64,000 nucleotides of DNA, taken from the IMG/VR virus record IMGVR_UViG_3300029906_000160. The stretch is one strand, 5' to 3'. The notes beneath the pieces were generated by a model. The model was given only the letters and a program-made list of their open reading frames with translations. It was not told where the DNA came from and did not search any database. This stretch comes from a virus (Duplodnaviria > Heunggongvirae > Uroviricota > Caudoviricetes). The translations under genes were made by a program, and so were the position numbers. Shown here piece by piece: positions 1,072-64,000 of this stretch (positions within the stretch are counted from its first letter, which is position 1; each line of letters opens with the position of its first letter).

Positions 1072-2696
<1,625 letters not shown>

Positions 2697-3158: not shown

Positions 3159-3575
3159 TTAAGATTTGTATTTATTTTCAATTACAATGTATTCTTTTTT
3201 CTTAATTAAATTATTCCACAAATCAATAAACTGTTGTTCTTCTTCTGTATTTTCTCCAGTATTATATTGAATTAATTCTCCTTCAGAGGTTTCTTCAGTA
3301 ATTGTATCAGGAGTATTCCCTTCCCAAACTATTTTTTCATCATATTGAGATGCCAAAGCTTGATAAACTGGAGATTCCTGTAAAGTTTCTTTAACAAGAT
3401 CTGCAGACATTCTAATAATTGATTCTTTAGATGAATTTAAGATACTCATAAGAATTGTAGAAATAGTACTAACTAGATCTTGTGCAGAATTAACAGGATG
3501 TTCGTTTATTAAATCATGAAAAATTTCAAGGATTGATTCTCTTTCTTCTGGAGATACTTCTAAGTGTATTTTCAT
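3159..3575 (-). CDS. acidic hypothetical protein
   Basis: ORF track; 138 aa, translationally coupled to neighbours. Confidence 0.5.
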   Translation of the reverse strand: MKIHLEVSPEERESILEIFHDLINEHPVNSAQDLVSTISTILMSILNSSKESIIRMSADLVKETLQESPVYQALASQYDEKIVWEGNTPDTITEETSEGELIQYNTGENTEEEQQFIDLWNNLIKKKEYIVIENKYKS

Positions 3576-4962: not shown

Positions 4963-5052
4963 GTCTTAGAGCAGGAGCTGAACGGGTCGAACGCTCACCT
5001 GAGGCTTTGGAGGCCCCCTTTACGGTTTTGAAGACCGCTGTGCTACCATTAC
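4963..5052 (-). tRNA. tRNA with anticodon UCA (reads UGA); tRNA-Trp-like backbone; atypical 25-nt variable region
   Basis: acceptor GGAGCUU/AGCUCC; D-arm UAGUGUAAUGGUAGCAC; anticodon arm GCGGU-CUUCAAA-ACCGU (E. coli tRNA-Trp has ..GGUCUCCAAAACCG..); T-arm GAGCG-UUCGACC-CGUUC; 90 nt. Confidence 0.6.
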
Positions 5053-5168
5053 ACTAAGCTCCTATTAAAATAAAGAACTCTCTATTTGCTTAGATTTATA
5101 ATCTCTCTAAATATTTGTTCTTTTAATTTCTAATACAAATATATAAAGAAATTTTTAATCTTACAAAT

Positions 5169-5630
5169 TTATTTTTGAGAGTTCGAATCGGAAAAGAATG
5201 CAATTACTTTATCAGTAATTTCGTCGGTTAAACCAGTTTCATAATCAATTCCAAAGAATGGTTGACCTGGAATCATATCTGTACGATCATCGATTATACA
5301 CCATCGATCATCTTTAGTTAAATGTTGATCTACCCAATTCTGAATTTCTTTACCACGACTTAATTCTTTTGGAGAAAAGATACTCATTTCAGTACGACCA
5401 ATAATTACACCAGTTAAGCCAGCAGTATATAGTCTTTTACAAGAACAGTTAAAATCGTATCTCCAATCTGAAGACATAACAAGATATGCCCCTGTTTCAG
5501 AGCATATCCTGTTTAGCCTTTCAATACATTTTGGATCTAGATCCTCGTCTATTGCGTTTGGATGATATGATTGATACCAAGTCTCAGAATTAAGAGTTCC
5601 ATCAATATCGAACATAATAAAATTAGCCAT
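5169..5630 (-). CDS. HAD-superfamily hydrolase/phosphatase
   Basis: N-terminal FDIDGTL (DxDGT motif). Confidence 0.55.
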   Translation of the reverse strand: MANFIMFDIDGTLNSETWYQSYHPNAIDEDLDPKCIERLNRICSETGAYLVMSSDWRYDFNCSCKRLYTAGLTGVIIGRTEMSIFSPKELSRGKEIQNWVDQHLTKDDRWCIIDDRTDMIPGQPFFGIDYETGLTDEITDKVIAFFSDSNSQK

Positions 5631-10722: not shown

Positions 10723-10864
10723 TTTCTTCCAGCCAATCCATTCTAAATTTTCCCATTTTGGAAATTAAAGAAAAATTAAATAGTTAAACTTAAGTAATAA
10801 AAATGTTGCTTCAACGTGTTGATTTAAAAGATCAATGTTTTAATAAGATTATAAGCAACATTAG

Positions 10865-10937
10865 TGGAACTTTAGGGATTCGAACCCTAACTCTTAGAAT
10901 GCAAATCTAAAGTGCTAACCATTATCACTAAAGCCCC
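10865..10937 (-). tRNA. tRNA-Ala (UGC)
   Basis: cloverleaf by hand; G3:U70; anticodon loop UUUGCAU; T-arm GGGUUCGAAUCCC. Confidence 0.7.
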
Positions 10938-11035
10938 ATAACATTAAATATTTAAATTAAAAATTAAAGAATTGATACTAAATGCCGCTACATACGAATT
11001 ATCAAATTCCATTTATAGTATTATAAGTATCAAGA

Positions 11036-11109
11036 GAGCAGCATAGGTGAATCGAACACCCATATTCAGATTGGAAGTCTGACATAATAACCGTTATACT
11101 AATGCTGCT
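11036..11109 (-). tRNA. tRNA-Gly (UCC)
   Basis: acceptor AGCAGCA/UGCUGCU; anticodon loop CUUCCAA; T-arm GGUGUUCGAUUCACC. Confidence 0.7.
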
Positions 11110-11185
11110 AATAATAGAAAGGCTTAGGACTTCTTTTGGTAAGTTTTACTCAGGATCCTGGAGATTTTCCCTTTCCTTTCTATTG

Positions 11186-11258
11186 AGCCTTCTGTCGGAA
11201 TCGAACCAACAACCTGAACTTTACAAAAGTCCTGCTCTGCCTATTGAGCTAAGAAGGC
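11186..11258 (-). tRNA. tRNA-Thr (UGU)
   Basis: acceptor GCCUUCU/AGAAGGC; D-arm UAGCUCAAUAGGCAGAGCA; anticodon loop UUUGUAA. Confidence 0.7.
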
Positions 11259-11265
11259 GTATCTA

Positions 11266-11831
11266 TTATTTTGTATATTTCTTTCGTTCTTTTCTTCCAT
11301 TACCTTTATTAGCACCTTTATACGTAGCAGTTAAAGAATGACAATTTGGACATAATAGTATTAAATTTTCTTCAGAATTATTTAAATAATTTCCATCTAT
11401 GTGTTCGACTTCTAATGGAATTTTATTAGTATATGGATTTGTTTCTCCTCACCCACATCTAGCACATTTATTATTATATTTTTTAAACAAATAACACTTT
11501 AAATAAGAACTAACTTGATACTCGCCTTTTAATCCTGTTTCTTTTCCCTCTTTTCAACGTTTTTCTCATTCCTTTTGTTCTCAATTTTGTTGACATTGGT
11601 GAGAACAAAATTTTAAGTGAGCTTTATGTAAATTCTGTCCACAATTAAGGCAAACGCCATAATCTTTTTCTTTTTGAGTTGTTAATAAAATATCTAATTT
11701 TATTGCTCATCTTTTTATAGTTCGTCAATTAACATTATATAGTCTTCCTATTTCTGCATAAGAAAGTTGTTGAACGTTAATTAAATTGTTTAATGTTTCT
11801 TTGTCAATCATTTTAAAAATCTACTGTAATA
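11266..11831 (-). CDS. HNH homing endonuclease with N-terminal HTH; 5 in-frame TGA read as Trp
   Basis: CARCGW..LEVEHIDGN..NLILLCPNCH; HTH LSYAEIGRLYNVNWRTIKRW; unreadable in the standard code. Confidence 0.75.
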
Positions 11832-12152
11832 ACCATTATACTAAAAAGGCAATAAATGTTACTAATACGTAGCCAACGGAGCATTTTATGGTTGCACAAC
11901 CTGGAGCAGAATACATAATTCCACACAGTACATGTTAAATAAGTATTATAAGTAACATAATGGCTTGCGGGAGTTGAAGGTAACGCTCCTCCGTACTCAC
12001 GTTAACAGCGTGAAGTTCTACTTTTGAACTAAACTCCCAACAATCTACTTTATCCTACATACGAAAAGTAGTAAAACGTATCTCCATACGATGAGATTCA
12101 TGAGCGACAGGGCTTCAAGATGCTACGATTCACTCGTCAGTGACTAATTATT

Positions 12153-12227
12153 GAGCGCCAGTGGGACTCGAACCCACGTAGAATGGCTTATGAGACCATG
12201 CTGGGACCATCTCCAGTCTACAGCGCT
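12153..12227 (-). tRNA. tRNA-Met/Ile2 (CAU)
   Basis: acceptor AGCGCUG/UGGCGCU; anticodon loop CUCAUAA; T-arm GUGGGUUCGAGUCCCAC. Confidence 0.6.
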
Positions 12228-12261
12228 ATATTGTATCGCATAAATGTTTATTTATAATATA

Positions 12262-12720
12262 TCAAAGAGTACCTTTACTCTTTATATTATATTTTTTCAT
12301 TAAATCTTTATAAGAAAGCCCAAGATGTTTATCGCTTCGAATTTGTTTTATTAATTCATTAGAATAAATTCTATTTGCTAACGCAGATTTCTTTATTCTT
12401 ACTTTTTCTGGAATATCAAACATATTATCAGAATTAGTTCCAATTTCAATATTTTCCTCTTTATTGTTTAAAGAATTTCCATCTAAATGTCTAATAACCA
12501 TATCTTTTTCATAAATCTTTTCTTTAAACTTTTTATATGCTTGAAATCTATGATGATATACCTTAATATTCTTTCCATTTAACTTAAAAGAAAAATATAA
12601 ATAAGGTTGTTTTCCTCTAGTTCCAACAATGTTGCCTTTTGGACTTGTAACAATTCCATCTTTAGAAATTACATAACCTTTATTTCAAGCTAATTCTTCA
12701 TAATGATTATAATTTACCAT
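12262..12720 (-). CDS. HNH (HNH_3-type) endonuclease; 1 internal TGA read as Trp; annotated stop is itself TGA
   Basis: YHHRF..VIRHLDGNSLNNKEENIEIGTNSDN; track ORF 12262-12501 extends upstream through a TGA to an ATG at 12720. Confidence 0.65.
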
Positions 12721-12741
12721 TTTTGTTATATTTTTATATTG

Positions 12742-12900
12742 TGACTCCTGTGGGACTTGAACCCGACGACCCCATCATTAATTTCAGACAAGTCTGGATA
12801 GTTGGGCACGATCCAACGACCTCCAGTTCCCAAAACTGGCGTTCTACCAACTGAACTACATCCAGAAAGTGATGTGCTCTACCAACTGAGCTAAGGAGTC
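12742..12900 (-). tRNA. tRNA-Lys (UUU)-like gene interrupted in its anticodon loop by about 85 nt that contain a complete tRNA-Pro
   Basis: 5' half GACUCCU-UA-GCUCAGUUGGUAGAGC-A-CAUCA-CUUU; 3' half UAA-UGAUG-..UUCAAGU..-AGGAGUC-A; perfect 7-bp acceptor and 5-bp anticodon stems between the halves. Confidence 0.5.
12793..12865 (-). tRNA. tRNA-Pro (UGG), nested inside the tRNA-Lys-like gene
   Basis: C1:G72 acceptor CUGGAUG/UAUCCAG; D-arm GUUCAGUUGGUAGAAC; anticodon arm CCAGU-UUUGGGA-ACUGG; T-stem GUUGG/CCAAC; 73 nt. Confidence 0.65.
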
Positions 12901-13009
12901 GCTCTTAAGATACTTATTTTAAACCTAACTTATCAATTAATGTAAATATAAACTTGTAAGTATCTTATTTTATGTTAATCTTCAGTATTATAAATTTCTC
13001 TAGTTACTT

Positions 13010-13081
13010 TATTGATGTTGGAATCGAACCAACGAACTCTGCGTGACTCGCAAATGTTAAAACCACTTAACTAATCAATTG
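13010..13081 (-). tRNA. tRNA-like, anticodon region GUC (Asp?) with non-canonical position 33
   Basis: D-arm UAGUUAAGUGGUUUUAAC; T-arm GUUGGUUCGAUUCCAAC; acceptor mismatch at 1:72. Confidence 0.45.
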
Positions 13082-13143
13082 ATTTTATAAGTAACTTAAA
13101 CTAAACCTATAAGTTTGAGTAAATTCAGGGACTTATAGGTACA

Positions 13144-13485
13144 CTAAATTTTTTCAATTATAATTTTAATATTTCCCCAACTTTTTGGAATCACATCTTT
13201 AAATTGAGATTCCCAAAGTAAAGATTGATTTGTAAAATAATAATTACCATAAATAGAAGAAATATAATGTTTTATTTGACTTATTTGCTTTTCAAATTCT
13301 TTATATTTTTTATTCTTCTTACTTATCTGGCATTGAGCTAATTCTAGATTATATATTTCTTCTAAACGAGGTTTGATATCATTTATATAATCAGAATATT
13401 CGATTAAATATTTATATTGAGATACTGTATATTTAAGTTTAGTATCATGAACATAAGTAATTTTATATTTACCTAAAGTTTTCAT
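13144..13485 (-). CDS. hypothetical protein
   Basis: ORF track. Confidence 0.45.
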   Translation of the reverse strand: MKTLGKYKITYVHDTKLKYTVSQYKYLIEYSDYINDIKPRLEEIYNLELAQCQISKKNKKYKEFEKQISQIKHYISSIYGNYYFTNQSLLWESQFKDVIPKSWGNIKIIIEKI

Positions 13486-13501
13486 ATTTAAATAAATTTA
13501 G

Positions 13502-13575
13502 TACTCGGTGGGAGATTCGAACTCACCGTGAAGGGAATGAAAATCCCTCATACTAACCAACTATATGAACCGAGC
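13502..13575 (-). tRNA. tRNA-Glu (UUC)
   Basis: anticodon arm AGGGA-UUUUCAU-UCCCU; T-loop UUCGAAU; acceptor GCUCGGU/ACCGAGU. Confidence 0.55.
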
Positions 13576-13576
13576 A

Positions 13577-13612
13577 AAAAAGAGGAGAGCTAGAACCCTC
13601 CTCGAACTAACA
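13577..13612 (-). terminator. putative rho-independent terminator (minus strand)
   Basis: minus-strand GAGGAG-(10 nt loop)-CUCCUC followed by UUUUUU. Confidence 0.4.
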
Positions 13613-13918
13613 AAGAAATGTTAGCGATTCGAAATGCTACTTATTTCAACGAGCTAATTTAAAAGATTAGAGTTTTAAAATGTTATTATAAGTAGCATAA
13701 TATAATTTTTTTTAAATTTAACCTTTTAATGTAACCTCTTTATTAATTGGATCTCATACAACAAATCAAAGATTTGTTTTTAGTTAACCATCCACTAACA
13801 TAATTAACTGCTCCTGCATGAGTTGAATCTATTGATAATTTTATTCTGTCTTCTATACTGCTCGTCCAGTCACAGTTATGAGAAATGGATTACTAACCGT
13901 AGCTCCATGAAAGTCATA

Positions 13919-14365
13919 TCAAGTACCAGCAGTCATCTGAATAGCACTAGCTGGTCTATCGTCCTGAAGTCTACCTGACATGCTATATGCGAATGAGGTA
14001 TTTATTGGTACTGTTCCTGTCACTCGTGTTATCTTAATCCCACTGATTGCTTTAGTCTCATGCCTATAGTCAAGATCAGGAGATCCATTAACCATATAAT
14101 TAACTGGATTAGTAGTAGATATCTGATATTGTACTTGCATTTGTCCATCATATCCTATTAATCCTTGGAATAGAATATAGCAGTAAATCCTTGCTGCTAT
14201 ATCAGCCTCCTGTACTAACTGATTATTACTATAAGTACCCTTTATAGTAAATTCACTAGCATTTTTAATATCTTGATACGTAGGACATTGAGAGTAAGTA
14301 TTAGGATAAGTTACCTTATATCCGAAATTATCATATAAATACTGATAAGTTGCAATTTTACCCAT
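13919..14365 (-). CDS. hypothetical protein
   Basis: ORF track. Confidence 0.45.
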   Translation of the reverse strand: MGKIATYQYLYDNFGYKVTYPNTYSQCPTYQDIKNASEFTIKGTYSNNQLVQEADIAARIYCYILFQGLIGYDGQMQVQYQISTTNPVNYMVNGSPDLDYRHETKAISGIKITRVTGTVPINTSFAYSMSGRLQDDRPASAIQMTAGT

Positions 14366-14510
14366 GATACACCTCCTCCCTTTCCTTAATTTGAGATTGA
14401 TTAAACTTTGTAAACATAATGATAATTAATTTAATTGTCAAACAATAATTGCTATTACTAGTTTACCGATTTCCTCATTATGTCAAGCAATTACGATAAA
14501 ACTATAATAG

Positions 14511-14585
14511 ATTGAACTCACAGTAGGATTCGAACCTACATCTTCCTATAATAATATAGGTGTTCTGTCATTAAACTACATGAGT
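14511..14585 (-). tRNA. tRNA-like element (T-arm UAGGUUCGAAUCCUA); identity unresolved (6-nt anticodon loop by hand)
   Basis: acceptor ACUCAUG/UGUGAGU with G:U pairs; canonical T-arm. Confidence 0.4.
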
Positions 14586-14690
14586 TAGTAAATTTCTAGT
14601 TACTAAATTATAGCAGAGTATTTAGTTATAGGATAATTCAGGAATAGTAGTATATAAGTTACTTACTTCTTGATTAGTTCTATTATCTAA

Positions 14691-15350
14691 TTATTTAATT
14701 AATACTTCATCGATTAAACCATAAGATTTTGCTTCTTCTGCATTAAACCAACAATCTCTATCTGCATTCTCTACAATTTGAGAATATATAATTCCTGTGT
14801 TCTTAGAAAGTATTTCATATAGAGTTTGTTTGTATTGTTTAATTTCTTCGTAAGCAATTTTTATATCTGATTCTTGAGTTCCTGGAGCAATTCCACCCAT
14901 AGGTTGATGAATCATTATCTTACTATGTGGTAATGCGAATCGTTTACCTTTAGTTCCACTAGATAATAAAACTGCTCCCATAGATGCTGCTAATCCAATT
15001 GCATAAGTTTCTACATTTGGAGATATATACTGCATCATATCATAAATAGCAAGTCCATCAACTATCGAACCTCCAGGACTATTTATAAATAATTTAATCT
15101 CAGTTTTATCATCCATTGTATTTAAATACAACAACTGAGAAGTAATAATATTAGCAACATCTGCGTCAATGTCTGTTCCAAGAAAGATAATTCTATCAGC
15201 CATCAATCTTGAAAATATATCCATAGTTGCTACATTATTTCGTCTTTCTTCTACAATAGTTGGACTTATAATATCATTAGTAAACTTTTGATAATCCCAC
15301 ATTTTATGAGATCCTACTCGCGAACTCAGAAACTTTTCGTAATCTTTCAT
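14691..15350 (-). CDS. clpP: ATP-dependent Clp protease proteolytic subunit ClpP
   Basis: catalytic-Ser region GLAASMGAVLL, His region MIHQPMGG; 219 aa; no TGA. Confidence 0.9.
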   Translation of the reverse strand: MKDYEKFLSSRVGSHKMWDYQKFTNDIISPTIVEERRNNVATMDIFSRLMADRIIFLGTDIDADVANIITSQLLYLNTMDDKTEIKLFINSPGGSIVDGLAIYDMMQYISPNVETYAIGLAASMGAVLLSSGTKGKRFALPHSKIMIHQPMGGIAPGTQESDIKIAYEEIKQYKQTLYEILSKNTGIIYSQIVENADRDCWFNAEEAKSYGLIDEVLIK

Positions 15351-15693
15351 TATATAAATATATTATTTTATCTTTTTTAACATCATAATATTCTGCATCA
15401 ACAGGATTGTAATGTCCCCAACATATAGTTACATCTGGAAACAAAGAATTAAATTCATTAAGTTCTTTACCTATAAATTCTTTAAATCCTGTATTATTTG
15501 CATGAATTTCATCAACATGAATTACAAACAAATTAATATCTAACTTATCGTAATAACATCTAAGTTTTATATCACGATATTTATTTGTAATTCTATTACA
15601 CAAATTCTTTATAGAAAATTCTAAAATTCTTCTAGCTTGAATTTCAGCCCAATCACGTATTTTATTTATTATTTTAAATATAAATTTTAGCAT
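15304..15693 (-). CDS. hypothetical protein
   Basis: ORF track; promoter-like motif 35 nt upstream. Confidence 0.45.
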   Translation of the reverse strand: MLKFIFKIINKIRDWAEIQARRILEFSIKNLCNRITNKYRDIKLRCYYDKLDINLFVIHVDEIHANNTGFKEFIGKELNEFNSLFPDVTICWGHYNPVDAEYYDVKKDKIIYLYNERLRKVSEFASRIS

Positions 15694-15744
15694 ATTTATA
15701 ATGATACTATTTGACTGAAGACTTATTAAATATTGTAAGTATCA

Positions 15745-16954
15745 GTCGTATATTTTATTTTATAAGCTTAATGTTATAATATTCACAGAGAGAATTTAAA
15801 ACATTTCTTTTAATGTTAAATATTTCAAATAGTTTCTGTTTTGTCTTATATTTACTTCAAGCTTCTAATAAGTCTTCTTTAGAAACTATAGGATTTCCAT
15901 TTTCATCTAATATAGACCTCAATTTTAATCATTTAGCGTTACATTCGCGAGAACAACAAACACTTTTTCTATCTTGAGGTTTATATTCTTTCCCACAAAC
16001 GATACAAATTCGTTTTGGAACAGGTTGTTTATTATTTAAACCTAACTCTGTTTTAGTAGATGGAAGATTATATTGTCTACATCATCTTCTAACAGTATTA
16101 TCTGTAACTCCAAATTGTTTAGCGATATTACGAAAACTTCTAGTTTGAATTGCTTCTTTTAATCATTCTTTTGTCGGATATTCTAAATTTGCGTTTTCAT
16201 TATTCTTTAATCTAGATTTTTGTAAAGTATCTAATCTAGATTTTGTACTACATTCTTTAGAACAAAAATCAGATGTACCAGAAAACTCTTTACCACAATA
16301 CTTACATTTCTTAATTTTGTGTTTTACTATAAGCTGATTTTCTTTCTTTATATTTTTACCACAATAATTATCTGTTATTGCATGACAATTTGGACACAAT
16401 AGTTGTAAATTTTCAATTCTATTATCAGTATTAATTCCATTAATATGATGGACTTCTAATGGAATTTGTTGTCCTTCTCATTCTGTTTTATTACATTTTT
16501 CACATTTTCATTCTTTTAATCCAAATTCCACTAATCTAATTTTTAATTTAGATTTTTGATAATCTGAATTTTCTTTAAATATATCTTCTTTAGTATATTT
16601 CTTTCTAACTTTTTCTTTTGTATTATCTATACAAAAATGAGAAGTATCAATATTATATTTTTCTATAATTTTGTTAATACGAGAATAATTTGTATTTGTC
16701 GCTCTAATTCCTAAATTTTTACAAACATCGTTTATATTCTTACATTTTGGAATTAAATCAACAATAATTTGTTCATATTCTTGTTTAGCTTTTTCTCGTT
16801 CGATTATCTTTTCTCTATCTTTTTGTCATTTAGTACCAAGATAATAAGCTACTAATGATTTTGTAGAATTACATTTTGATGCAATTTGAGTATAACTTAA
16901 TCCTTGATTATGTAATTCTTTAAATAATTTATATTTTTCTTCAGCTTCAGTCAT
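15745..16954 (-). CDS. HNH homing endonuclease with multiple HTH domains (about 402 aa); 7 in-frame TGA read as Trp
   Basis: LEVHHINGINTDNRIENLQLLCPNCH; C-terminal HTH ..NTVRRWCRQYNL with W=TGA; track shows only a 78-aa fragment (16163-16399). Confidence 0.75.
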
Positions 16955-17013
16955 TTTATAAAGAAAAATTAAAAATTAATAAAATCTTTTATATTTTAAT
17001 CTAAACAATATTC

Positions 17014-17088
17014 GTAGATCTGGCTGGGCACGATCCAGCAACCTTCTGAGTCAAAGTCAGATGTTCTAAACCAATTGAACTACAGATC
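17014..17088 (-). tRNA. tRNA-Gln (UUG)
   Basis: acceptor AGAUCUG/CAGAUCU; anticodon arm UCUGA-CUUUGAC-UCAGA; T-arm GCUGG-AUCGUGC-CCAGC. Confidence 0.65.
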
Positions 17089-17240
17089 TATTACCATATT
17101 TTTAGTTTGATTTGAATTCCAAACTAAAAATATTATTAAAAATGAAACTTAATTAATTTTGTAAAGTACAACCAAAGAACTAAGAAATTATTAATTATAT
17201 TATATTGTAAGTTTCATTTTATATATTTCAACGTTACTAT

Positions 17241-17313
17241 TACATGATATTGGAATCGAACCAATTACATTTTGTGCCTTAAGCAAATGCTCTACCTAAT
17301 GAGCTAATCATAT
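17241..17313 (-). tRNA. tRNA-like (anticodon loop region UUAAGGC; Leu?)
   Basis: acceptor AUAUGAU/AUCAUGU; canonical D-arm UAGCUCAUUAGGUAGAGCA; T-arm UUGGUUCGAUUCCAA. Confidence 0.5.
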
Positions 17314-17345
17314 TAGTTTTATAAGTAACGTATATTATCAATTAA

Positions 17346-17465
17346 AATGCTACTATTGTACGTGCTCTAACCATCTGAGCTATACGCAAAATGCGCAACC
17401 GGACTTGAACCGATGACCACGAGATTACGAATCTAAAACTTTGATTTTGTAAGTAGCAATTATTT
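17346..17465 (-). other. tRNA-derived modules in non-canonical order (T-arm AUCGGUUCAAGUCCGGU upstream of D-arm UAGCUCAGAUGGUUAGAGCA)
   Basis: hand alignment; no complete cloverleaf. Confidence 0.35.
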
Positions 17466-17800
17466 TATTCTGCCTTAATTATCTTTTTATCTTCATCAAG
17501 TTTATAGGGAGCTTTTTCCTCTTTATTAAATGTAGAAGCTGTTTCCATAAACTGATCAAGAAAATAACTTTTTAAATATCCGAAATGTGGATGAGCTTTA
17601 TATTTATTACAAAGCCAAGAGTAAACATTATCGTAATTTTGATTTACAGATCTTTTAAGTTTTCTATCTATTATGCGATAATCCTTATTCAGATCTTTAT
17701 CAACAGGAGCAACATTATAATATTCTGTAAAGTCTTTAGCCTCCTGCTTATGAGAATCTCGCATTGATTCTCTCATCGGCATATTATCAAAATCCTGCAT
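17465..17800 (-). CDS. hypothetical protein
   Basis: ORF track. Confidence 0.45.
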   Translation of the reverse strand: MQDFDNMPMRESMRDSHKQEAKDFTEYYNVAPVDKDLNKDYRIIDRKLKRSVNQNYDNVYSWLCNKYKAHPHFGYLKSYFLDQFMETASTFNKEEKAPYKLDEDKKIIKAE

Positions 17801-17884
17801 AATTAAATAAAATTAAAATGTTACTTTATAATAAAACTTGCCCGCAACAAGTCACGTAAACCATTCCGTCTTTCCAGAACATAT

Positions 17885-18235
17885 TCTAGAAGTTGGATTC
17901 GAACCAACAATTATTTAATAGTTTTATAAGTAACATAATTAATAAAAGTCTATTGACACTTTATACGTTGCTCTACTAATGAGCTTTATTGATAATTCAA
18001 TAAAAGGATTTGCACCTTTAACCTACGGGTTACAAGCCAGATTTTGTTTTATAAGTGTCAAATTATAAGTCTAATGATACATTTATACTTATGCTCTACC
18101 ACTGAGCTAATTAATCAATTTTTTGGCGATTAATACTGGATTTGAACCAGTTACCTTAAGTTCCCCACAATAGTTTTATATGTATCATATTTGGGAGTTA
18201 AAAGATATTCGAAATCTTTCCTTTTCAGTCACAGT
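17885..18235 (-). other. array of tRNA modules (3 canonical D-arms, 4 T-arms) interleaved with promoter-like motifs; order and acceptor complementarity suggest permuted or fragmented tRNA genes
   Basis: minus strand: T-arm(ACUGG-UUCAAAU-CCAGU)+AUUAAUC..GAUUAAU+D-arm(UAGCUCAGUGGUAGAGC); repeated pattern. Confidence 0.35.
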
Positions 18236-18291
18236 GAAATATGCTAGCCAATTACACCATTAACTCCATCTGCAAATATATAACAAAAATT

Positions 18292-22309: not shown

Positions 22310-23200
22310 TTAACTAATTTCTTCTATTTCGTGAGACACGGTATCTAAATTAAGAAAAAATTGAACTTTTTCATATTTTCTAGGCAATCATATATTATCT
22401 TTTTCTGCATAAATTTTTTCAACAAAAAATTTTATTTCTTGAGAATTACAATTACGAATATAAGAACTACATCCAGTTTTTGTTTGTCTTTGAATAACTT
22501 TTGTTTTTAAACCAAAGTATTCTAAAAGCTTTTGCATTCCAGTTCAATCCTGATTATATGAACTAGTAATACTAAATGTTGTACTAAAAGTAGTTTTCTT
22601 AGACTGAATATAATAACATCCATCACCGTCTATATAACCTCTCAAAAAGTAAGATCAATATTCTTTTGGAACATAGTCTATAATTTTTTGATGTGATTCT
22701 ATGGATTTACTATATTTGCCTAATTGCTGTAATTGTTCTGCAATATCAATTCGATTTGTATGAATTTCAATTTGAGGTTTTCTGTTTTTTCTTATTTGAT
22801 GATAAATATTAAATTGCCCTAACTTTTGAAATATAGGAAATACTTTATCTCCGTCTTCTTGAACAATTTTAATAGATAAACCTCCTTTTTTAGAAATATA
22901 TCCATCTGCTCAAAAATATCCTAAAAAATATGCTAATTCTTTTGGAAACTTTGTTTTAGAAAAATCAATAGTAAAATCAAAATGTTTGTCTTGCTCACCA
23001 TTGAATGTTAAACTCTTTATTTCTTCCTCTGTGACATTAATTGGATGTTTGTTCGTTCCAATTTTTAAACGAGACCCCATTCCGACAATACTAGCAACAG
23101 TTCTATCTAATTTTTCTCCACAAACGATTGCTCCAAATTTTTTAAGATTCTGTTTTAAAAATTCAATTTCATCTTTAGTTCAGGATTTATTTTGTTTCAT
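22310..23200 (-). CDS. LAGLIDADG homing endonuclease (two motifs), free-standing; 5 in-frame TGA read as Trp
   Basis: LAYFLGYFWADGYIS and WSYFLRGYIDGDGCYY; 297-codon continuous frame only with TGA as sense. Confidence 0.75.
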
Positions 23201-23278: not shown

Positions 23279-23737
23279 TTATAACTCTGAAACTTGATGT
23301 GATACTGTATCGATAACAAATGCGCGTCTACAATCTAAATCTACAAAATTTTCTAAAATTATGGGATTTTCCTTCGTTTGGGAATGTCCGAAAACCTGGA
23401 ATAAAGTATCGTCACAATCAGATTCACGAACATCATGCCAAATTGGAGAACCAGTAGAATACCAACCACCTCTTTCCCAACTCATTTCCCAAAATATTTC
23501 AGGAGATGCTTTATATATCTCATTTAGATAAATATCTGCATCAGTTTCTGGAAGTTTTAGATCATGACGCTTTAACCAATCTTTAGATACTCCTGCATGC
23601 GTGAACAGAGTATCATCAATTTGTTTAGCTATCTGAAAAAACTCTATATCTTCAGTATATATTTGATGTAATTCATCCCACCTAAAAGAATCTATTCTAG
23701 ATGCATTATAACTCGAATAAATATAGTGCCAATCCGT
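23279..23737 (-). CDS. C-terminal half of a PPP-family Ser/Thr phosphatase (lambda-PPase/ApaH-like)
   Basis: DTLFTHAGVS, VFGHSQTK motifs; frame opens right after a TAA with no ATG; 1 TGA read as Trp upstream of the first Met. Confidence 0.6.
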   Translation of the reverse strand, partial: TDWHYIYSSYNASRIDSFRWDELHQIYTEDIEFFQIAKQIDDTLFTHAGVSKDWLKRHDLKLPETDADIYLNEIYKASPEIFWEMSWERGGWYSTGSPIWHDVRESDCDDTLFQVFGHSQTKENPIILENFVDLDCRRAFVIDTVSHQVSEL

Positions 23738-23829
23738 TTATGTTCAATGTAAATCGTTAGTTTACACCCGTTATTAACTGCTTATACTTCATTTTCGTAT
23801 AAGACCTGACTATATCTTCACCTTCGACA

Positions 23830-24702
23830 TTACTCGTTAAGGGCGGAGCATTCCGAAGCACTTGCTTCTACCACCATTTCAGGAATAGTCGATGAACCTT
23901 CAACCTCATTAGAGGAAGCTTGGCTGCTGATTACCATCTCAGGCGTCCCAGCAATTAACTCCGTTTCACTTAATGATTTCTCATTAAGAGCACAAATTAT
24001 TTCTTCAAATTTTTTCTTTTTTCTTGGAAGGAAAACTGTTGCGTCTTTATATATAAAATCATAAAACTTTTTAATATTTTGTCTACCAGAATATTCCATT
24101 GTACAAATATCGGAATTAATTCTACGTGAGTTTAACTTAGTTTGTTTAAATCCTAGATTATCAATTAAATATTGTTGATAAGCTGAAATAAAAGAAACGT
24201 ATCCGGTAATATTAAATTTAACATTATGAATAATACGTTCTCTACGTCCCTCTTTTCGTGTGGGATCGTTTACTCACATTTTCTTTCTTTTTCCATTTCA
24301 AATACAACCGTCTCCATCAAAATAACCTCGCATAAAGTGAGAAATTAAATCTTCTGGGACTTGTCATTCTGTTGGTCAAGACAAATTTTTAGTTTTACGT
24401 TTAACACATCCTTGTTTTTCTAATGATTCTGCAATATGTTTTCCGTATACATAAAATCGAATTTGATCCTCATGATTTTCATTTGTATCTTTTCTAATAA
24501 GTAATGGATAATCCGATTTCATTTCTTCTTTTAATTTATCAACAACACATCTATCTTCAATTTGAAGTGATATTGATATCTCTCCAGTAGTTGGATGTTC
24601 ATGATTACATCCATCTGCATACAATAATCCAAGAAAATATGCCTTTTCTGGCGTATTTATCTCATCAAAATAAGTTTCATCATAATTATGTTTTCTTTTC
24701 AT
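23830..24702 (-). CDS. LAGLIDADG homing endonuclease between the two phosphatase halves; several in-frame TGA read as Trp
   Basis: KAYFLGLLYADGC and HFMRGYFDGDGCIW; joins track ORFs 24376-24702 and 23830-24099. Confidence 0.7.
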
Positions 24703-24765
24703 ATATTTATAAATTTAATTGATTTAACTTTACAAATATACAAATATTTATTATGATTTCCAAAT

Positions 24766-25014
24766 TTATTTTGATGATTTCCAAAAATTTGATAATTTAT
24801 GATTACCTAGTAAAAGAGTGACTCTATCAGGGTTTTGATCCTTAAAATTTAGTATATCTAAAAGATATTGTATAGAATTAGGATATTCATCTTTCCATTC
24901 GTATGGATAAGGATCAAGATAATCTCCTAAAAATATAATTGAATCATTCCACTTTTTTACAGCATCTTTCCAAAACTCACGAAGATGTAAATCGGGAATT
25001 ATTAGCGCTTTCAT
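24766..25014 (-). CDS. N-terminal half of a PPP-family Ser/Thr phosphatase
   Basis: IIPDLHL, FLGDYLDPYP, LLLGNHK (GDxHG / GDxxDRG / GNHE motifs). Confidence 0.7.
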   Translation of the reverse strand: MKALIIPDLHLREFWKDAVKKWNDSIIFLGDYLDPYPYEWKDEYPNSIQYLLDILNFKDQNPDRVTLLLGNHKLSNFWKSSK

Positions 25015-33296: not shown

Positions 33297-33611
33297 TAGC
33301 TCCGATGCGATTTGAACGCACACTTCCACTGCTGGAAAAGGGATTTTAAGCAAAAATACTTGATTCTTGGACTATCTCATTACCATGCGTATAAACGTTT
33401 AGGTATCGGACGCTCTAGTTGGTTATTAAGAAGACTAAACTTCTCCAATAGTCTCTACACGTTCAGTAATTGTAACTACTGCTTCGCTCGCCCTCTGTGT
33501 TTTCTCACTTCAGCCGAATTCATCCGATTATGCGATATAGATTTCTCTATAAAGGGGACTTCTGTCTAATATTGACAGTTCCCTCGTGTCTACCTATTCC
33601 ACCACGGAGCC
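33297..33611 (-). tRNA. tRNA-Leu (UAA) interrupted by about 229 nt in the anticodon loop (probable group I intron)
   Basis: 5' exon GGCUCCG-UGGUGGAAUAGGUAGACACG-AGGGA (cf. E. coli tRNA-Leu ..UGGUGGAAUCGGUAGACACAAGGGA..); 3' exon CUUAAAA-UCCCU-long variable arm-GUGCG-UUCAAAU-CGCAU-CGGAGCU-A. Confidence 0.55.
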
Positions 33612-34412: not shown

Positions 34413-34430
34413 AATTGAAAAGTTTTAATT

Positions 34431-34466
34431 AGTGGAGATATCGGGAATCGAACCCGAGTCTTTTAT
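34431..34466 (-). other. tRNA-like 3' fragment (T-arm UCGGG-UUCGAUU-CCCGA plus acceptor) bordering a 750-nt ORF-free region
   Basis: no matching 5' half found by hand; 9-nt direct repeat TGGAGATAT also at 34683. Confidence 0.35.
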
Positions 34467-35211
34467 TAATCCTATATAGTTTTTATTTATATGCTTAGTT
34501 AATTTTTCTAAACTAACAAAATAACTAAATTGATTAAAGAGTGTTTAGTAAAACTCTGAATTTAAAGAATTATAATGAAAAGAGCTATGCGAAACTATAA
34601 TTAAAAGGCATAGTGGGAGTAAAGAACTCTTTGAGTGTCTTCACTACTTTTGAGAAAAGATTTTTAATTCCGTTTATTTTTGGAGATATTTAAAGTAATC
34701 ACTTACTGCATAAAACATATACCAAATCAATAAAATCAAATCCAAGCATCCCCAATGCAAAGATAAGAAAAAGTTTTAAATATACAAATAAAAATGGATA
34801 CTAAGTATAAATAATTCGCCTGCCTTTCTAATTTCAAAATTGGACGCGCTATATAGCTATTTTATAAATATACTTAGTATCCAAATAAAAATGGAAGATC
34901 TGACTGTATGTTTAAGTAACCCAAAATGCTAGTTACATAACGCATAATCCCTACAGCTAGGCTCTATTCTCTTAAATAGACTTTAGCACCAGATCTTCCA
35001 AAAAATTGGTTATAAGGTTACCAACCCAGCCTAGGCAACTTTAATCTAGAATTCAGTTGCTTCGTTACTTCAGACGCCAAATAATATTGTCTGAGAGTCA
35101 CCTCTATCTTTAATATGTATATAAGGAAGCTGAGGAAGCTATTATACACATCCGGATCTTTATATACTTCTCCTAGTATAATCCGGCTATACTAAGAGGA
35201 CTTATAAAAGA

Positions 35212-58951: not shown

Positions 58952-59544
58952 TGGAAATATTTATATTCGATAATGTAACTAATAAACTGCGAATCAATGA
59001 ATATGATATATTACTTATAAAAGAATTTGCTGATCTCTGAGATCAAAATAGAAACAAATGTGCTGAAGACAAAACTGGAGAGAAACGGCTTCTTGCCTAT
59101 AAAGAATTTACTTATATCTATTTGACTCTTGATTTTAAATCTCCTTATTTTAAATACCTAGAAAAAGATAAGCATGAAGCTGCACTAGCCGATTCTGGTC
59201 TAGAGGAATCTCATCTAAAAGATCCATTGTTCGTTGCAGCATATCATAAATATCAAGAGATACAAGAAGCCGATCCAGTTTTATCTCTTATAAAAACAGC
59301 ATATCATACATTATATAAAACTCAGGTTTTCTTAGATTCAATAGATTATAGTGAGAGAGATGATACGGGAAAACCAATATATAAGCCGAAAGATGTTATG
59401 AACGATATAGCAACAATCGGTAATTTAAGAGCAAAGCTTCAAGAACTAGAAGTCTTACATAAAACAAATATGGCTGCAGCATCTAAAGTACGTGGTGATA
59501 TTCAAACTGGATTTATGGAAGATTCTTATCCTTGACAGAAATAG
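58951..59544 (+). CDS. hypothetical protein, about 197 aa (TGA read as Trp)
   Basis: manual translation; track fragment 59122-59535. Confidence 0.45.
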
Positions 59545-59574
59545 ATTTAGTAATAGATAAGTAATAATAGATTC

Positions 59575-60384
59575 ATGGTAAAGAAAAGAGAGAGATTAGA
59601 AGATACGCCGGAATTTATGAAAAAATATGGTCAAGCTTTAAAGAGAATGGATGAACGTAACAAAACTGCAGAAGAAAAGAAATCCAAACTTAATAAGCAA
59701 GACTTACAAAAACTCCCCGGATTCGCAGAAAATTATGAAGAAAGTCTTATTCGACAATTATTCGAAGAAGATCTTAAGAAAAAGATTGAAAAATATCTTG
59801 GAGAAGATGATAAAGAATCGCAATATTATCAAGACTCATGAGAATTAAAACATCATAAAAGAGACGGATTGTGAGATGTTAAAGCTGATGAGAGAATTGA
59901 ATATTTTGATCCTGAGTTATCTTACGAATTAACTGGTTATCGTCCCATAACAATGACTGAAGGTTTGGACTTTGATCCAGAACCATTTAGAGAAGCAGCT
60001 AGAATTTATGAAGAAACTGGAAAATATACTGAATATCCAGCAGGTTGTAAACCATACAATGATTATTGAATGGAACAACTTAAACGATGTGCTGAAGGTT
60101 ATACCGTTGGAAAGTATAGAATAACTGGAGATCATTATTTCTTCTTAAATTTCTATCATATGCAAACCGTTAATAAGTCTAGTGCAAAACACGTAAGAGG
60201 TCGTATACAAAGCTTTCCAATGTTTGCTGTAAAACAGTATGAGTTCTTTCATTACGTAGAACTATGCGAATATACAGGACACGATGTTGTTATGTTAAAG
60301 GCAAGAGCTTTAAATATTATCTTGAAGCCATTAGCAGTAATGTTAATGTTAAATCCCGCAATATCGGTAAATACTGAGATGTAA
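59575..60384 (+). CDS. terL: terminase large subunit, N-terminal segment up to the Walker-A position (..DVVMLKAR)
   Basis: T4 gp17-like pattern ..FPMFAVKQYEFFHYV..VVMLKAR; 3 TGA read as Trp; frame ends 25 codons later in TAA. Confidence 0.55.
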
Positions 60385-60546
60385 ATACCGAGATAACTTG
60401 AAATCACAAGTATCGTAGAGCATAGAAGATGAGCGTTAAGAGAGCAATAATTCTTCCAAGAGTGTGGGCTCCATTATATGGATGAAAATATATGCCGAAC
60501 TATAAAGAACAACAATTTATAGAATTATGAGATAAAAAGCTCATAA

Positions 60547-60996
60547 GATAACAAATGAGGATTTTCAGAGATCTTAGCTGATCTTTGTGTTAGACCTTTC
60601 ATTACAACTCGTCAATTTAGAACAGTGGCCACTGCTGATTCTGATGGACACTTAGATCCATTACTTGATAAATGTTGGACTCAGCTTAACTGACTTAACC
60701 TTCATACTGATGGGGGTATGAAACGTTCACGCCAAAAAATCGATAATATTAAACAAAAGAGAGCATCACTTTTAAATAAAGAAGGAGTCGAATATGGATC
60801 AATGTCAGAAATAGAAGGAATTGTCGCAGATGATCCTAATAAGATTCGTGGCGATCGTGTTGAAAGATTAATATATGAAGAAGCTGGTTCTCAACCAAAA
60901 CTTATTAAAGCTTGAATACAAGGAAATGCATTAGTGGAGATAGGAGGTGAAAAGATAGGGGTTCGAATTGCCGGAGGAACGGGTAGATTAATGTAA
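60547..60996 (+). CDS. terL: terminase large subunit, central ATPase segment (Walker-B region)
   Basis: ..ADDPNKIRGDRVERLIYEEAGS.. (cf. gp17 [21 protein letters not shown]). Confidence 0.5.
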
Positions 60997-61022
60997 ATTA
61001 TTAACTAGTAATTTTTATTGTT

Positions 61023-61922
61023 ATGACTACAACAAAAATAGAACGTGAAAAAATAAAACAAATAATTATTGATGAATACATAAACACTCCAGAAAAAGAA
61101 AGAAGTTTAACTAAACTAGGAAATAAATATGGAGTTAAAAGACAAACAATTTCTAAATGATTAAAAGCTAAAGGATTTGAAATAATTAATTATCAAAATA
61201 GATGTAGAATTGACGAAACAGTTTTTGATAATATAGATACAGAAGAAAAAGCATATTGATTAGGTTTTCTTTATGCTGATGGAAATATTAGTACAGTAGG
61301 AAATCGTTTAGAAATGAATTTATCTTCTAAAGATTTAGATCATATGTTAAAATTTAAAAAATTTTTAAAATTAGAATCTGAAATTAGAATTGAGGATAAT
61401 CATGGAGAAGGAAAAGAAATTTGTAGATTAGCTGTCAGAAATAAACATATCTGGCAACAATTAAATGATAAAGGATGTGTTCCTTGTAAGTCTTTAATTT
61501 TAATATTTCCAGATAGGTCTATATTTAAATCAGAAATTTTAATTTATGATTTTATACGAGGATATTGCGATGGAGATGGAAGTTTAGGTATGTATATTAA
61601 AGAAAATACAAAAACTCATAAATGTTGAATATCTTTTGTAGGAACAAAAGATTTTTTAAATGGAATTGAAAATTTTCTTAATATTAAAGGAACAATTCGT
61701 AATAAAACTTGTACTAATTGACAAAATCAAGCTTATAATCTTAAATACGAAGGAGTAAAAGCTAGAAAAGTAGCAAGATTACTTTATGAAAATTCATCAA
61801 TTTATATGAATAGAAAATATAATAGATTTTTACAATTCTGCTCCTTTGAAGAGGGATCTTCAACAGCAAAATCGAGCAAAATCGAAAGACGCTGTAATGC
61901 GAATATCGAGGTAAATAACTAG
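61023..61922 (+). CDS. LAGLIDADG homing endonuclease inserted within terL; 4 TGA read as Trp
   Basis: AYWLGFLYADGNIS and FIRGYCDGDGSL; N-terminal HTH. Confidence 0.75.
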
Positions 61923-62079
61923 ATTGCGAAAGGCTAGTTATCACCGTAACGCGTAGTAATTGAATAAATATAATATTACCAAGAGTGCTCGACATCTAGA
62001 ACAGATGAAAATGTACGCTGAACTATAGAGAATAAGAATCTATAGAATTTAGAGATAAAAAACTCTAAAGATAACAAAA

Positions 62080-63261
62080 TTGGGTGATTCCGGAATTGCA
62101 CTTGCGGGATTATCTGAAATGTTTAATAATCCTCGTGCTTATAATGTATTACCTTACAAAAATAAATATACTCGTGATGGCAAGATTGCTTACACTGGTT
62201 TCTTCATTCCAGCTCATGAGTTCTCTTTAAATCCAGAATTTGTTGATTCTCGTGGAGTCACAGATTCCGTTAGATTTAAACAATGATATGAAGAACAACG
62301 AAAAAAGATGGAAGGTCAAGCTCTCTTAGATTATTGTGCAGAACACTGTTTTACTCCTGATGAAGCGCTTCTTAGACAAGGTGATAATATCTTTGACTCA
62401 ATTGTTATTTCTGAACGACTCACTCAAATTAGAGTATTTAAAGAAAATTATCAAAAACCTGAACCAACAGCACTTTTATGAGTTGGAGAAGAAAGAAAAT
62501 TTGTAAAAGCACAACCTCTAAGTACGAGTAAATTACTTGTTGTTGAACCTCCTCTTTTAGACATGGATGGAAATCCTTATAATAATTTATATGTTGCAGG
62601 AATAGATGCTATTGATATGGGTAAAGAAGATTCTGCTATAGATTCTGATGTATCTGATTTCTGCATTGTAATTAAAAAACGTGCATTTGGTATGGATTCT
62701 CCAAAATATGTGGCCATGTATAAAGATCGTCCACAGAAAATTAGAGATGCATACGAAATTGCTATGAAACTTTGTGTATGATATAATTGTAAAGCAATGT
62801 TGGAGTATACAAAAATATCTATACAAAAATACTTTGAACAATATAAAAAATCTCACTTATTTATGGCTCGTCCTGAATTTGCAGTATCGAATCGTGCAAA
62901 AAGAACCACAACTAAAAATCTTATTGGTTTACCTGCAACAGAATCTGTTATCAAGCATGGGTTGGAGTTAATCGAAATGTATGTTGAAGACTATTGACAA
63001 GATATTATGTTCGATGAAATGCTTGAACAACTTTTAAATTATTCTTATGAAGAAAAAAGAAAGTTTGATATTGTAGCAGCCTTATCAATGTGTGAGATTG
63101 GAGATGAAGCAATGCTGGGGTTCTCTGTTAAAAATGCTCAATCTACTAAACAAGAATGAAAAGACTACGGATATTATTATGATGAGAATGGGCATAAAAG
63201 ATTCGGAGTTATTCCAGATAAAAATAATAATATAATACAACCACCAAAATGACACTTTTAG
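62080..63261 (+). CDS. terL: terminase large subunit, C-terminal nuclease segment
   Basis: ..LLVVEPPLLDMDGNPYNNLYVAGIDAIDMGKEDSAIDSDVSDFCIVIKK.. (RNase-H-fold nuclease motif); several TGA read as Trp. Confidence 0.55.
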
Positions 63262-63560
63262 AACAAGAAATTCTTGATACTATTAACGAAGCTGTTGGAG
63301 GTAAATATATTGGTCAATTAAAAGTGTTTCATGAAGACAAAGTTGGATGAGTTCTTCTATTACACATGAACCAAGAACAAGCTCCAATGAATTTTGTATA
63401 TGATGGTACTTGAGAGCAGTTTAAGAAGTTCATTTATAACGAATTGCACTTTAGAAAAATGCATAAAGCATCTTTCTTTCAGGCAGTTCAAGAATTACCA
63501 TCGCTTATAGATAAGCATGGTGAATTAGAATTAGATTATGATACTGTAATAATCACATAG
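63249..63560 (+). CDS. hypothetical protein, 103 aa (2 TGA read as Trp)
   Basis: manual translation. Confidence 0.4.
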
Positions 63561-63561
63561 A

Positions 63562-64000
63562 ATGGACAAACAAAAAGAAATTGAAAGCATTAATAAATGT
63601 ATTCAAGATCTTGTCTACGAGAAAGTTGAGTTAAAAAAAGCTTATAACTATTATCACTGTATTCGAGATGCTGAACAATTTCGACATATAGAAGATAATT
63701 ATGGTATTGGTACACCAACATCAATCGGATTTACTCCACTTATCAAGAAGCATATTGATGTTTTAGTTGGTGAATATCTCGAATTAGATCCTGATTTGCA
63801 AATCACATGTAAAGATGAAAAGACAGTATCTAATATTATGAGAGATAAACAGTTAGAAATTAATAAACAAGTTTATAATTTATTAAAATCTAAATTACAA
63901 AATCTAATTGTACAGGTTTTTGTAGATAGAAAACAAGCAGCTAACGATCCTTATATAGAAAAGGAAATAGAAAAACTCAAAAAAGATATAGATAAAAATT
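63562..64000 (+). CDS. hypothetical protein (portal?), 5' part; continues beyond window
   Basis: open frame to window edge. Confidence 0.35.
   Translation, partial: MDKQKEIESINKCIQDLVYEKVELKKAYNYYHCIRDAEQFRHIEDNYGIGTPTSIGFTPLIKKHIDVLVGEYLELDPDLQITCKDEKTVSNIMRDKQLEINKQVYNLLKSKLQNLIVQVFVDRKQAANDPYIEKEIEKLKKDIDKN

Follow-up and report, generated by a model that had tools for sequence, protein, structure and literature searches.

The 64,000-nucleotide stretch of the Caudoviricetes record IMGVR_UViG_3300029906_000160 that was analyzed here (the window) carries a terminase large subunit gene (terL) in three coding pieces, and we are highly confident that these are the exons of one functional gene split by two mobile group I introns that belong to one lineage of subgroup IA. 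The gene lies on the plus strand and comprises exon 1 (59575..60311, 245 codons plus 2 nt), intron 1 (60312..60557, a 246-nt group I intron without an open reading frame, ORF), exon 2 (60558..60984), intron 2 (60985..62082, a 1098-nt group I intron of the same lineage as intron 1) and exon 3 (62083..63261). A first-pass annotation of this DNA had described three coding pieces, the gaps between them and a double-motif LAGLIDADG ORF, all of which are present where it had placed them, and had proposed one or two self-splicing introns, one of them bearing the endonuclease, which agrees with the fold and junctions found here for both gaps. The limits that it gave to the pieces are ORF ends only, the frame being open into the introns and before the 3' splice sites.

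Exon 1 was delimited by translation with table 4, enumeration of junctions, alignment to the uninterrupted TerL of the relative L001 (MT835470) and the empty site of the relative L128. Its 3' end reads AAG GCA AGA GCT TT, that is, K-A-R-A and the first two bases of a Leu codon. In exon 2, the P-loop is completed as (L)GFSE, Walker B is RLIYEEAG, and the end is GGA ACG GGT (G-T-G), while exon 3 starts with GGT GAT (G-D), encodes the nuclease domain with YVAGIDAIDMG and finishes with a TAG stop codon at 63259-63261. The pieces share one frame when TGA is taken as sense, and the intervening stretches contain TAA and TAG stops. Under the group I rule that the 5' exon ends in U and the intron in G, enumeration leaves for each gap one in-frame junction that keeps the spacing of the conserved residues, KARAL/GFSE and AGGTG/GDSG, where the slash marks the point of ligation. 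The predicted sequence of junction 1 is ...GCAAGAGCTTT/AGGATTTTCAG... (in shorter forms GCAAGAGCTTT/AGGATTTTCAGAG and ATGTTAAAGGCAAGAGCTTT/AGGATTTTCAGAG), and that of junction 2 (60984/62083), which is in frame and has U at -1 and a terminal G in the intron, is ...GGAACGGGT/GGTGATTCCGG... (in shorter form GGAGGAACGGGT/GGTGATTCCGGA).

Splicing in silico yields a TerL of 780 amino acids that aligns with PHROG 6681 "terminase large subunit" as a single stretch (residues 137-746, E = 1.6e-70), and with annotated crAss-like TerLs at a best E-value of 4e-54 in tblastn; the pieces therefore do align to TerL, a point on which the first-pass annotation had made its reading depend. The TerL of L001, 46% identical, aligns gap-free across both junctions, and the intron-less site 2 of L001 and L073 reads ...GGNACNGGNGGNGAY.... 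Moreover, in the closest relative, L128 (88% identity; a 176.9-kb IMG/VR contig), site 1 is empty, and the sequence found there (ATGTTAAAAGCTAGAGGTCTCGGATTCTCAGAA) equals the predicted ligation ATGTTAAAGGCAAGAGCTTT/AGGATTTTCAGAG base for base. The exons are free of frameshifts and of stops other than TGA, the catalytic motifs LKARALGFSE, LIYEEAG and YVAGIDAIDMG are conserved, and the product has the N-terminal ATPase (P-loop, Walker B) and C-terminal nuclease of crAss-like TerLs, colinear with the family. Also, terL sits directly upstream of the portal gene, its usual position. The spliced TerL matched no Pfam family, its search against PDB sequences returned only a spurious glycoside hydrolase (E = 0.0014), and no deposited phage was matched by megablast with 59000-64000.

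The absence of a Walker A motif had been raised as a sign that this copy could be degenerate. In the first-pass annotation, RQLGKT was expected after the first piece, and no GK[ST] was seen in any frame. The latter is true but beside the point, because the P-loop of this family lacks GK[ST], and RQLGKT is the T4 form rather than the motif of crAss-like TerLs. Uninterrupted crAss-like TerLs have L-K-x-R-x-x-G-[FY]-S at the P-loop position, without GK[ST], examples being KARGVGFSE, KSRRKGYSY and KGRGLGFSE. In silico, splicing restores the P-loop codons as KARAL/GFSE, as had been supposed, together with GTG/GD at the second junction. The "missing" Walker A is therefore not missing, a deviant P-loop without GK[ST] being normal for crAss-like TerLs. 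Intron 1 lies within the P-loop codons (K-A-R-A-L/G-F-S-E), and intron 2 lies in the conserved GTG/GD motif, about 30 residues past Walker B (LIYEEAG).

The two introns are homologous, the last 75 nt of the two gaps being 84% identical, far beyond chance, with differences that are compensatory in two hairpins. The fold was evaluated in an alignment of 38 nonredundant compact cores from the family, under a scheme comprising P3, P4, P5, P6, P6a, a bulged P7, P7.1, P8, P9, P9.1 and the P3/P7 pseudoknot. The cores were picked by a regular expression that fixes several core motifs; the covarying helices were constrained in length only, and two covarying pairs of P7 only in purine/pyrimidine class, with all combinations allowed. 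In this alignment, standard pairs account for 97.2% of the cells, a share that drops to 32-41% once the 3' partners are shifted by 1-3 columns; changes on both sides occur in 43 of the 55 pairs, and none of 500 shuffles reaches any of the observed measures. P9.0 covaries as well: in 26 of the 38 sequences, the GA[A/G]C that follows P7' is matched by a 3'-terminal [U/C]UG. The P7 bulge (column 101) tracks its neighbor pair 100-194, being A with G-C and C with A-U, in 38 of 38 sequences and in 93 of 94 of a larger set, and next to it stands a guanosine-binding G-C pair that is invariant at columns 102-193, where the bases were fixed by the selection expression. We take the bulge pattern to fit the base triple beside the guanosine-binding G-C pair in solved group I structures, and this pair to be the equivalent of Tetrahymena G264-C311. 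Moreover, P1 and P10 covary among independent same-site introns. Both terL introns thus show the group I features, namely P1 with U.G at the cut, a terminal omega-G and the P4-P6/P3-P8 core with its P3/P7 pseudoknot, with all core helices and the G-binding pair intact; the proposed G-binding pair is G60420-C60495 in intron 1 and G61951-C62018 in intron 2. A covariance model built from the 38-core alignment, R1, scores 163.9 bits on intron 1 and 212.3 bits on intron 2 (61868-62082), and it also detects the three Twort orf142 group I introns, end to end, with 54.6 (E = 7.5e-17), 33.9 and 11.2 bits.

In intron 1, P1 is formed by exon GCUUU (60307-60311) and guide GAAGC (60324-60328), with U.G at the cut, and P10 by guide AUCUU (60319-60323) and 3' exon AGGAU. 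They are followed by P2 (60329-60342), P3 (60355-60359 with 60464-60468), P4 (UCGGUA 60364-60369 with UACCGA 60386-60391), P5 (UAC/GUA) and P6 (60392-60414). The near-duplicated 13-mer that had been noted in this gap is indeed present (60367-60380 and 60381-60394), but its copies are the two sides of the P4-P5 hairpin and have no function of their own as a repeat. P7 consists of G60418, the bulge A60419 and GCAUA (60420-60424) paired with UAUGCC (60491-60496); P7.1 (60425-60456), P8 (60471-60481), P9 (60500-60522) and P9.1 (60525-60546) complete the structure up to the omega-G at 60557. The intron ends in AUG, which gives a P9.0 of 1 bp. The minimum free energy fold, which allows nested pairs only, recovers P1, P2, P4, P5, P6, P7, P9 and P9.1 (z = -4.2), and P1 at site 1 is kept by compensatory changes in relatives (CGAU/GUCG in L005, GGGU/GCCC in L073).

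The ribozyme part of intron 2 (61840..62082, plus strand), placed by coordinates with the R1 model and family covariation, lies at the 3' end of the intron. Its P1 is formed by guide GCUC (61840-61843), downstream of the ORF, and exon GGGU (60981-60984); in relatives, P1 at this site is CGGU/GCCG (L002) and, in an ORF-less intron, CCGGU/GCCGG (L008). The core comprises P2 (61847-61862), P3 (61872-61877 with 61987-61992), P4-P5 (61882-61909), P6/P6a (61910-61945), P7 (A61949, bulge C61950 and GCGUA 61951-61955 with UACGCU 62014-62019), P7.1 (61956-61979), P8 (61993-62007), P9 (62023-62045), P9.1 (62048-62069) and the omega-G at 62082. The loop closed by P1, from the 5' splice site to the guide, houses the double-motif LAGLIDADG ORF (61023..61922, plus strand). 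Over its final ~80 nt, this ORF also covers the guide, P2, P3, P4, P5 and the 5' strand of P6a. It encodes 299 amino acids in another frame than terL and ends with TAG; the protein has an N-terminal helix-turn-helix and the motifs YWLGFLYADGN and IRGYCDGDGS. It matches PHROG 4645 "endonuclease" (E = 5e-51) and is 57% identical to the ORF of the same-site intron in L002, whereas its Pfam scores stay below the cut-offs (LAGLIDADG_3, 21.8 bits against 22.5; LAGLIDADG_1, 17.5 bits against 23.1) and the similarity to the homing endonuclease of PDB 2dch is weak (E = 0.0011). The protein may be an active endonuclease that drives homing.

The occupancy of the two sites was compared between the window and L001, L002, L008, L020, L068, L073 and L128. 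Both sites are empty in L001; only site 1 is occupied in L073 and only site 2 in L008 and L020; L128 has an empty site 1 and an insertion at or adjoining site 2; and both sites are occupied in L002, L068 and the window, with the first insertion of L068 being a few nt downstream of site 1. At site 2, the introns of L002, L008 and L020 are at the same position as intron 2, and L002 (MT835539, TAG-recoded) has related introns at the same two codons, both with LAGLIDADG ORFs. Copies of the intron exist with and without ORFs, the ORF-less relatives being those of L005, L008, L020 and L073, and we propose that intron 1 has lost, or never had, an endonuclease gene. Such sporadic occupancy is the usual signature of homing introns, and the pattern among these sequences is consistent with it.

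Some observations weigh against this interpretation. P1 of intron 2, where the structure is weakest, has only 4 bp, one of them G.U, and must form across ~850 nt of ORF; the search for a P10 in this intron gave no clear candidate, and its P4 contains an A-A mismatch. Because the regular expression fixed core motifs, invariant columns of the alignment are uninformative and divergent members were left out. Also, the boundaries at site 1 of L002 and site 2 of L128 depart from the U(-1)/omega-G rule. In L002, the 5' exon of the site 1 intron (~1936-3004) apparently ends in C or G instead of U; in L128, the insertion at 5159-5388 has a strong P1 (GGUGGU/GCCACC) and no P2, and among the junctions at its site 2, none was found that keeps the reading frame and also has U at -1 and G as the last intron base. 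Such boundaries may reflect errors in the sequences, sites that have shifted or splice sites of an unusual kind. Moreover, the splicing of both introns in vivo, alone or with help, is something that we infer from the sequence. Finally, the Rfam group I model RF00028 gave no hit over 60250-62150 at E<=10, the only match in this region being a spurious microRNA, whereas the same model scores the Twort introns at 64-101 bits. Neither terL intron reaches its gathering threshold (50 bits), and it gave no hit on 20 loci holding relatives.

The failure of RF00028 is read here as a limit of the model because the structural features of group I introns are present, and it is probably explained by differences in P7, J8/7 and P7.1. 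The search with Infernal group I models that the first-pass annotation had suggested would then have wrongly counted against introns. On the entire window, Rfam reported only tRNAs at the gathering threshold, and a permissive scan reported no introns. A further group I intron at 23.8 kb, described below, was missed by these whole-window scans and scores 69.5 bits with RF00028 when its region is given alone, the miss being due to speed filters that discard it. Thus, in this phage the standard Rfam check is a false negative for the terL introns and loses the third intron to filters, which makes comparative evidence necessary.

The short P1 of intron 2 across its long loop and the imperfect P4 are points in favor of an alternative in which the introns, although genuine, splice inefficiently and limit TerL, or in which one or both need a protein cofactor, either a host factor or the LAGLIDADG protein of intron 2 acting as a maturase. 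Some LAGLIDADG proteins are maturases, and the overlap between the ORF and the ribozyme core could set translation against folding. However, neither intron has lost a core helix or the G-binding pair (164 and 212 bits), and intron 1 persists with no protein linked to it, as do many ORF-less relatives, so we consider this dependence unlikely. Far less probable is that terL is a fractured, degenerating pseudogene, as the first-pass annotation had allowed, with another intact copy doing the packaging. In favor of this, the gene is broken into three parts, and a genome of probably ~177 kb, of which 64 kb are in the window, leaves room for a second copy; yet the exons show neither frameshifts nor non-TGA stops and keep the catalytic motifs, and the interruptions are precise, fall at codons shared with relatives, have a conserved group I fold and stand in a gene at the usual position before portal.

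Removal of the insertions by another route, as inteins, as group II introns or through ribosomal bypass or recoding, is the least probable of these alternatives, and we give it hardly any weight. In other crAss-like phages, the TerL motif that holds intron 2 here does house inteins (presumably in cr53_1; PMC7886860), but intein read-through is impossible here because TAA and TAG stops lie in the terL frame of both insertions and the LAGLIDADG ORF is in another frame. For group II introns, the Rfam models that the first-pass annotation had also proposed gave no hit, and 246 nt is too short. Moreover, the covariation matches the topology of group I. Two spliced group I introns in a functional terL therefore remain the reading that we favor.

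Both terL and the endonuclease ORF of intron 2 are written in an altered genetic code. The window has a G+C content of 31%, and its long ORFs are continuous only with TGA as sense. In terL there are 11 in-frame TGA codons and 1 TGG, and the TGA codons align with Trp or aromatic positions in homologues; the alignments show TGA to behave as a sense codon in terL. The endonuclease ORF has 4 in-frame TGA codons, 2 of them opposite TGG in L002, so that the homing endonuclease gene is written in the altered code of the phage as well. Decoding of UGA as Trp would probably be performed by a tRNA(UCA) encoded at 4971..5063 on the minus strand (93 nt; ARAGORN label SeC; Rfam tRNA, 52.4 bits), a candidate UGA suppressor. 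This tRNA has a long variable arm, unlike a normal tRNA-Trp.

Several split terL genes have been reported. In gut Jug phages, terL is in two or three pieces because of group I introns, with splicing confirmed by metatranscriptomes (PMC12880540), and for the Bastillevirinae there is experimental confirmation, the authors warning that Rfam and GISSD models may miss phage variants (PMC11878797). These genes share the layout described here, with up to three pieces and ribozymes of ~200 nt, some with endonuclease ORFs, but they belong to other phage groups and TerL families, and their splicing was verified by metatranscriptome or cDNA reads. In addition, Yutin et al. 2021 (PMC7886860) described intron-rich, stop-codon-recoded crAss-like phages (Delta and Zeta groups) with group I introns and inteins; the introns were found via endonuclease protein domains, TerL of the Delta group typically has inteins, and Zeta genomes measure 145-192 kb. 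The phage of the window has in common with them a crAss-like TerL, human-gut relatives, the probable TGA-to-Trp recoding with suppressor tRNAs in late genes, and core genes interrupted by numerous group I introns that carry homing endonuclease ORFs. In size, the 176.9-kb contig of L128 is within the Zeta range. Absent from that study are this terL intron pair, its RNA structure and the ORF-less copies. Intron-rich recoded crAss-like phages and three-piece terL genes are thus already published, and the current understanding is unchanged.

In the crAss-like phage cr53_1 (L003, NC_055889; 974-4153), terL is a single 3180-nt coding sequence with an in-frame insert of ~1 kb near residue 390. This insert is at the same GTGGD motif as intron 2 and is presumably an intein; in that case, one conserved site would be the target of an intein in one lineage and of an intron in another.

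The closest structural counterparts are the Twort orf142 introns (IA2; GenBank AF132670, annotated "contains group 1 introns"). The order of the helices from P3 to omega-G is the same, both have an extra helix between P7 and P3', and both have the 3' end P7'-UGAAC-P9(GAAA loop)-P9.1-...AAUUG. However, P7 is GCRUA/UAYGC in the terL lineage and GACUA/UAGUC in Twort, so that the neighbor under the guanosine-binding pair is C-G instead of A-U; J8/7 is AAAAU instead of GAUAU; and there is one P7.1, sometimes with a nested extension, where Twort has separate P7.1 and P7.2. In the terL lineage, P7.1 is one 5-bp hairpin in which all five pairs covary, with a conserved A-rich loop, and some members have a nested hairpin inserted in it. 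The separate P7.1 and P7.2 between P7 and P3' that define subgroup IA2 (Michel and Westhof) are not found, whereas homology to established IA2 phage introns is detectable with R1 in Twort. Given this homology and a single P7.1 that is closer to the P7.1/P7.1a arrangement, the introns are filed under subgroup IA, nearest to IA2/IA3 and not as strict IA2. A crystal structure is available for a Twort intron, which we take to be PDB 1Y0Q.

The terL of the Lactobacillus phage LL-H (NC_009554, joined coding sequence) also contains a group I intron with an endonuclease gene and a similar UGAAC-P9-P9.1 tail. Here, P7' is the canonical UAGUC, the ORF is HNH and not LAGLIDADG, the R1 score is 28 bits, mostly from the 3' part, and the TerL is unrelated. 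The LL-H intron was considered as a possible experimentally validated member of the lineage and rejected, having a canonical P7 and belonging to a different lineage.

A scan of viral contigs for the 3' motif found at least 120 stretches from many environments. Unannotated members of the lineage are present in deposited phages of Bacillus, Staphylococcus/Mammaliicoccus, Clostridioides, Streptococcus, Alicyclobacillus and Arcanobacterium. The best annotated DNA match is the Bacillus phage vB_BsuS_PJN02 (L126), where the intron (3501-3746) is between the ORFs "exonuclease V" and "Dda-like helicase" and adjoins a "mobile intron protein" and an endonuclease, itself having no intron annotation; its position suggests a split helicase gene. 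The members of the lineage share P7 GCRUA/UAYGC, in which C-G lies below the guanosine-binding pair, the J8/7 sequence AAAAU and one P7.1 hairpin whose loop is A-rich. For a 2025 intron database (PMC11835236), RF00028 hits served as the seed. We tentatively suggest, at somewhat less than an even chance, that the terL introns belong to a large, structurally distinct phage lineage of subgroup IA that is unseen by the Rfam group I model and maybe by resources seeded with RF00028. The only mildly new element is that a widespread lineage is shown to go undetected by the Rfam model.

Other interrupted genes are found in the window. The third group I intron (23735-24798, minus strand; 1064 nt, canonical P7, RF00028 69.5 bits in a 1.2 kb scan) splits a calcineurin-like metallophosphatase gene (23279-25014, minus strand) exactly at GNH/D. 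The spliced phosphatase of 223 amino acids matches Pfam Metallophos (42.7 bits) in an unbroken alignment that spans the junction, and the intron carries a LAGLIDADG ORF at 24702-23830 (PF14528, 32.5 bits). Another double-motif LAGLIDADG ORF (FLGYFWADGY ... LRGYIDGDGC; ~22500-23160, minus strand) is just downstream of the phosphatase gene.

At ~33300-33611 on the minus strand, a class II tRNA with the acceptor GGCUCCG/CGGAGCU, a long variable arm, a T arm and CUUAAAA as its anticodon loop is cut in two by an insert of ~230 nt that contains group I-like R/S elements (GUAGAGACUAUUGG ... GAGAUAGUCC). The insert scores 22.7 bits with R1 and has no RF00028 hit. A splice in silico at 33580/33350 gives an 87-nt tRNA-Leu(UAA), the enumeration with ARAGORN being too permissive to fix the junction. 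By analogy with cyanobacterial and plastid tRNA-Leu, the insert is a candidate group I intron in the anticodon loop.

The remaining RNA genes are also on the minus strand. A 12-tRNA array occupies 10864-18266, with one odd two-base anticodon call at 14514-14585, and beside the tRNAs there is a subthreshold match to a YrlA-like (Y RNA-like) element at 17361-17421 (38.9 bits against a gathering score of 69). A transfer-messenger RNA-like gene was called by ARAGORN at 34430-34753 with the tag peptide GIKNLFSKVVKTLKEFFTPTMPFNYSFA; its RF00023 score, 44 bits, is just short of the gathering score of 47.

Based on these structures, a late transcript of terL would fold so that the 5' exon ends pair with the internal guide in P1, with the U.G wobble at the cut, and free guanosine bound in P7 would attack the 5' splice site. 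The freed exon end would then attack after the omega-G, positioned by P9.0 and P10, and the exons would be joined. The messenger for the 780-amino acid TerL would require the removal of both introns, and its UGA codons would be read as Trp, probably via the phage tRNA(UCA). In turn, the LAGLIDADG enzyme of intron 2 may cut the intron-less terL of co-infecting relatives at the conserved site 2, and repair would copy the intron in.

Because of the introns and the TGA recoding, gene callers would report a terL that is intact after splicing as three to ten fragments, with the P-loop apparently missing, and routine scanning leaves all three or four introns of the window unreported, through the combined effect of filters and model failure. 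With its exact junctions and a structure that covariation supports, the gene serves as a worked example of how mobile introns target TerL catalytic motifs in recoded crAss-like phages. If the lineage is indeed distinct, the numbers of introns in phages would be systematically underestimated, and the lineage would merit a covariance model of its own.

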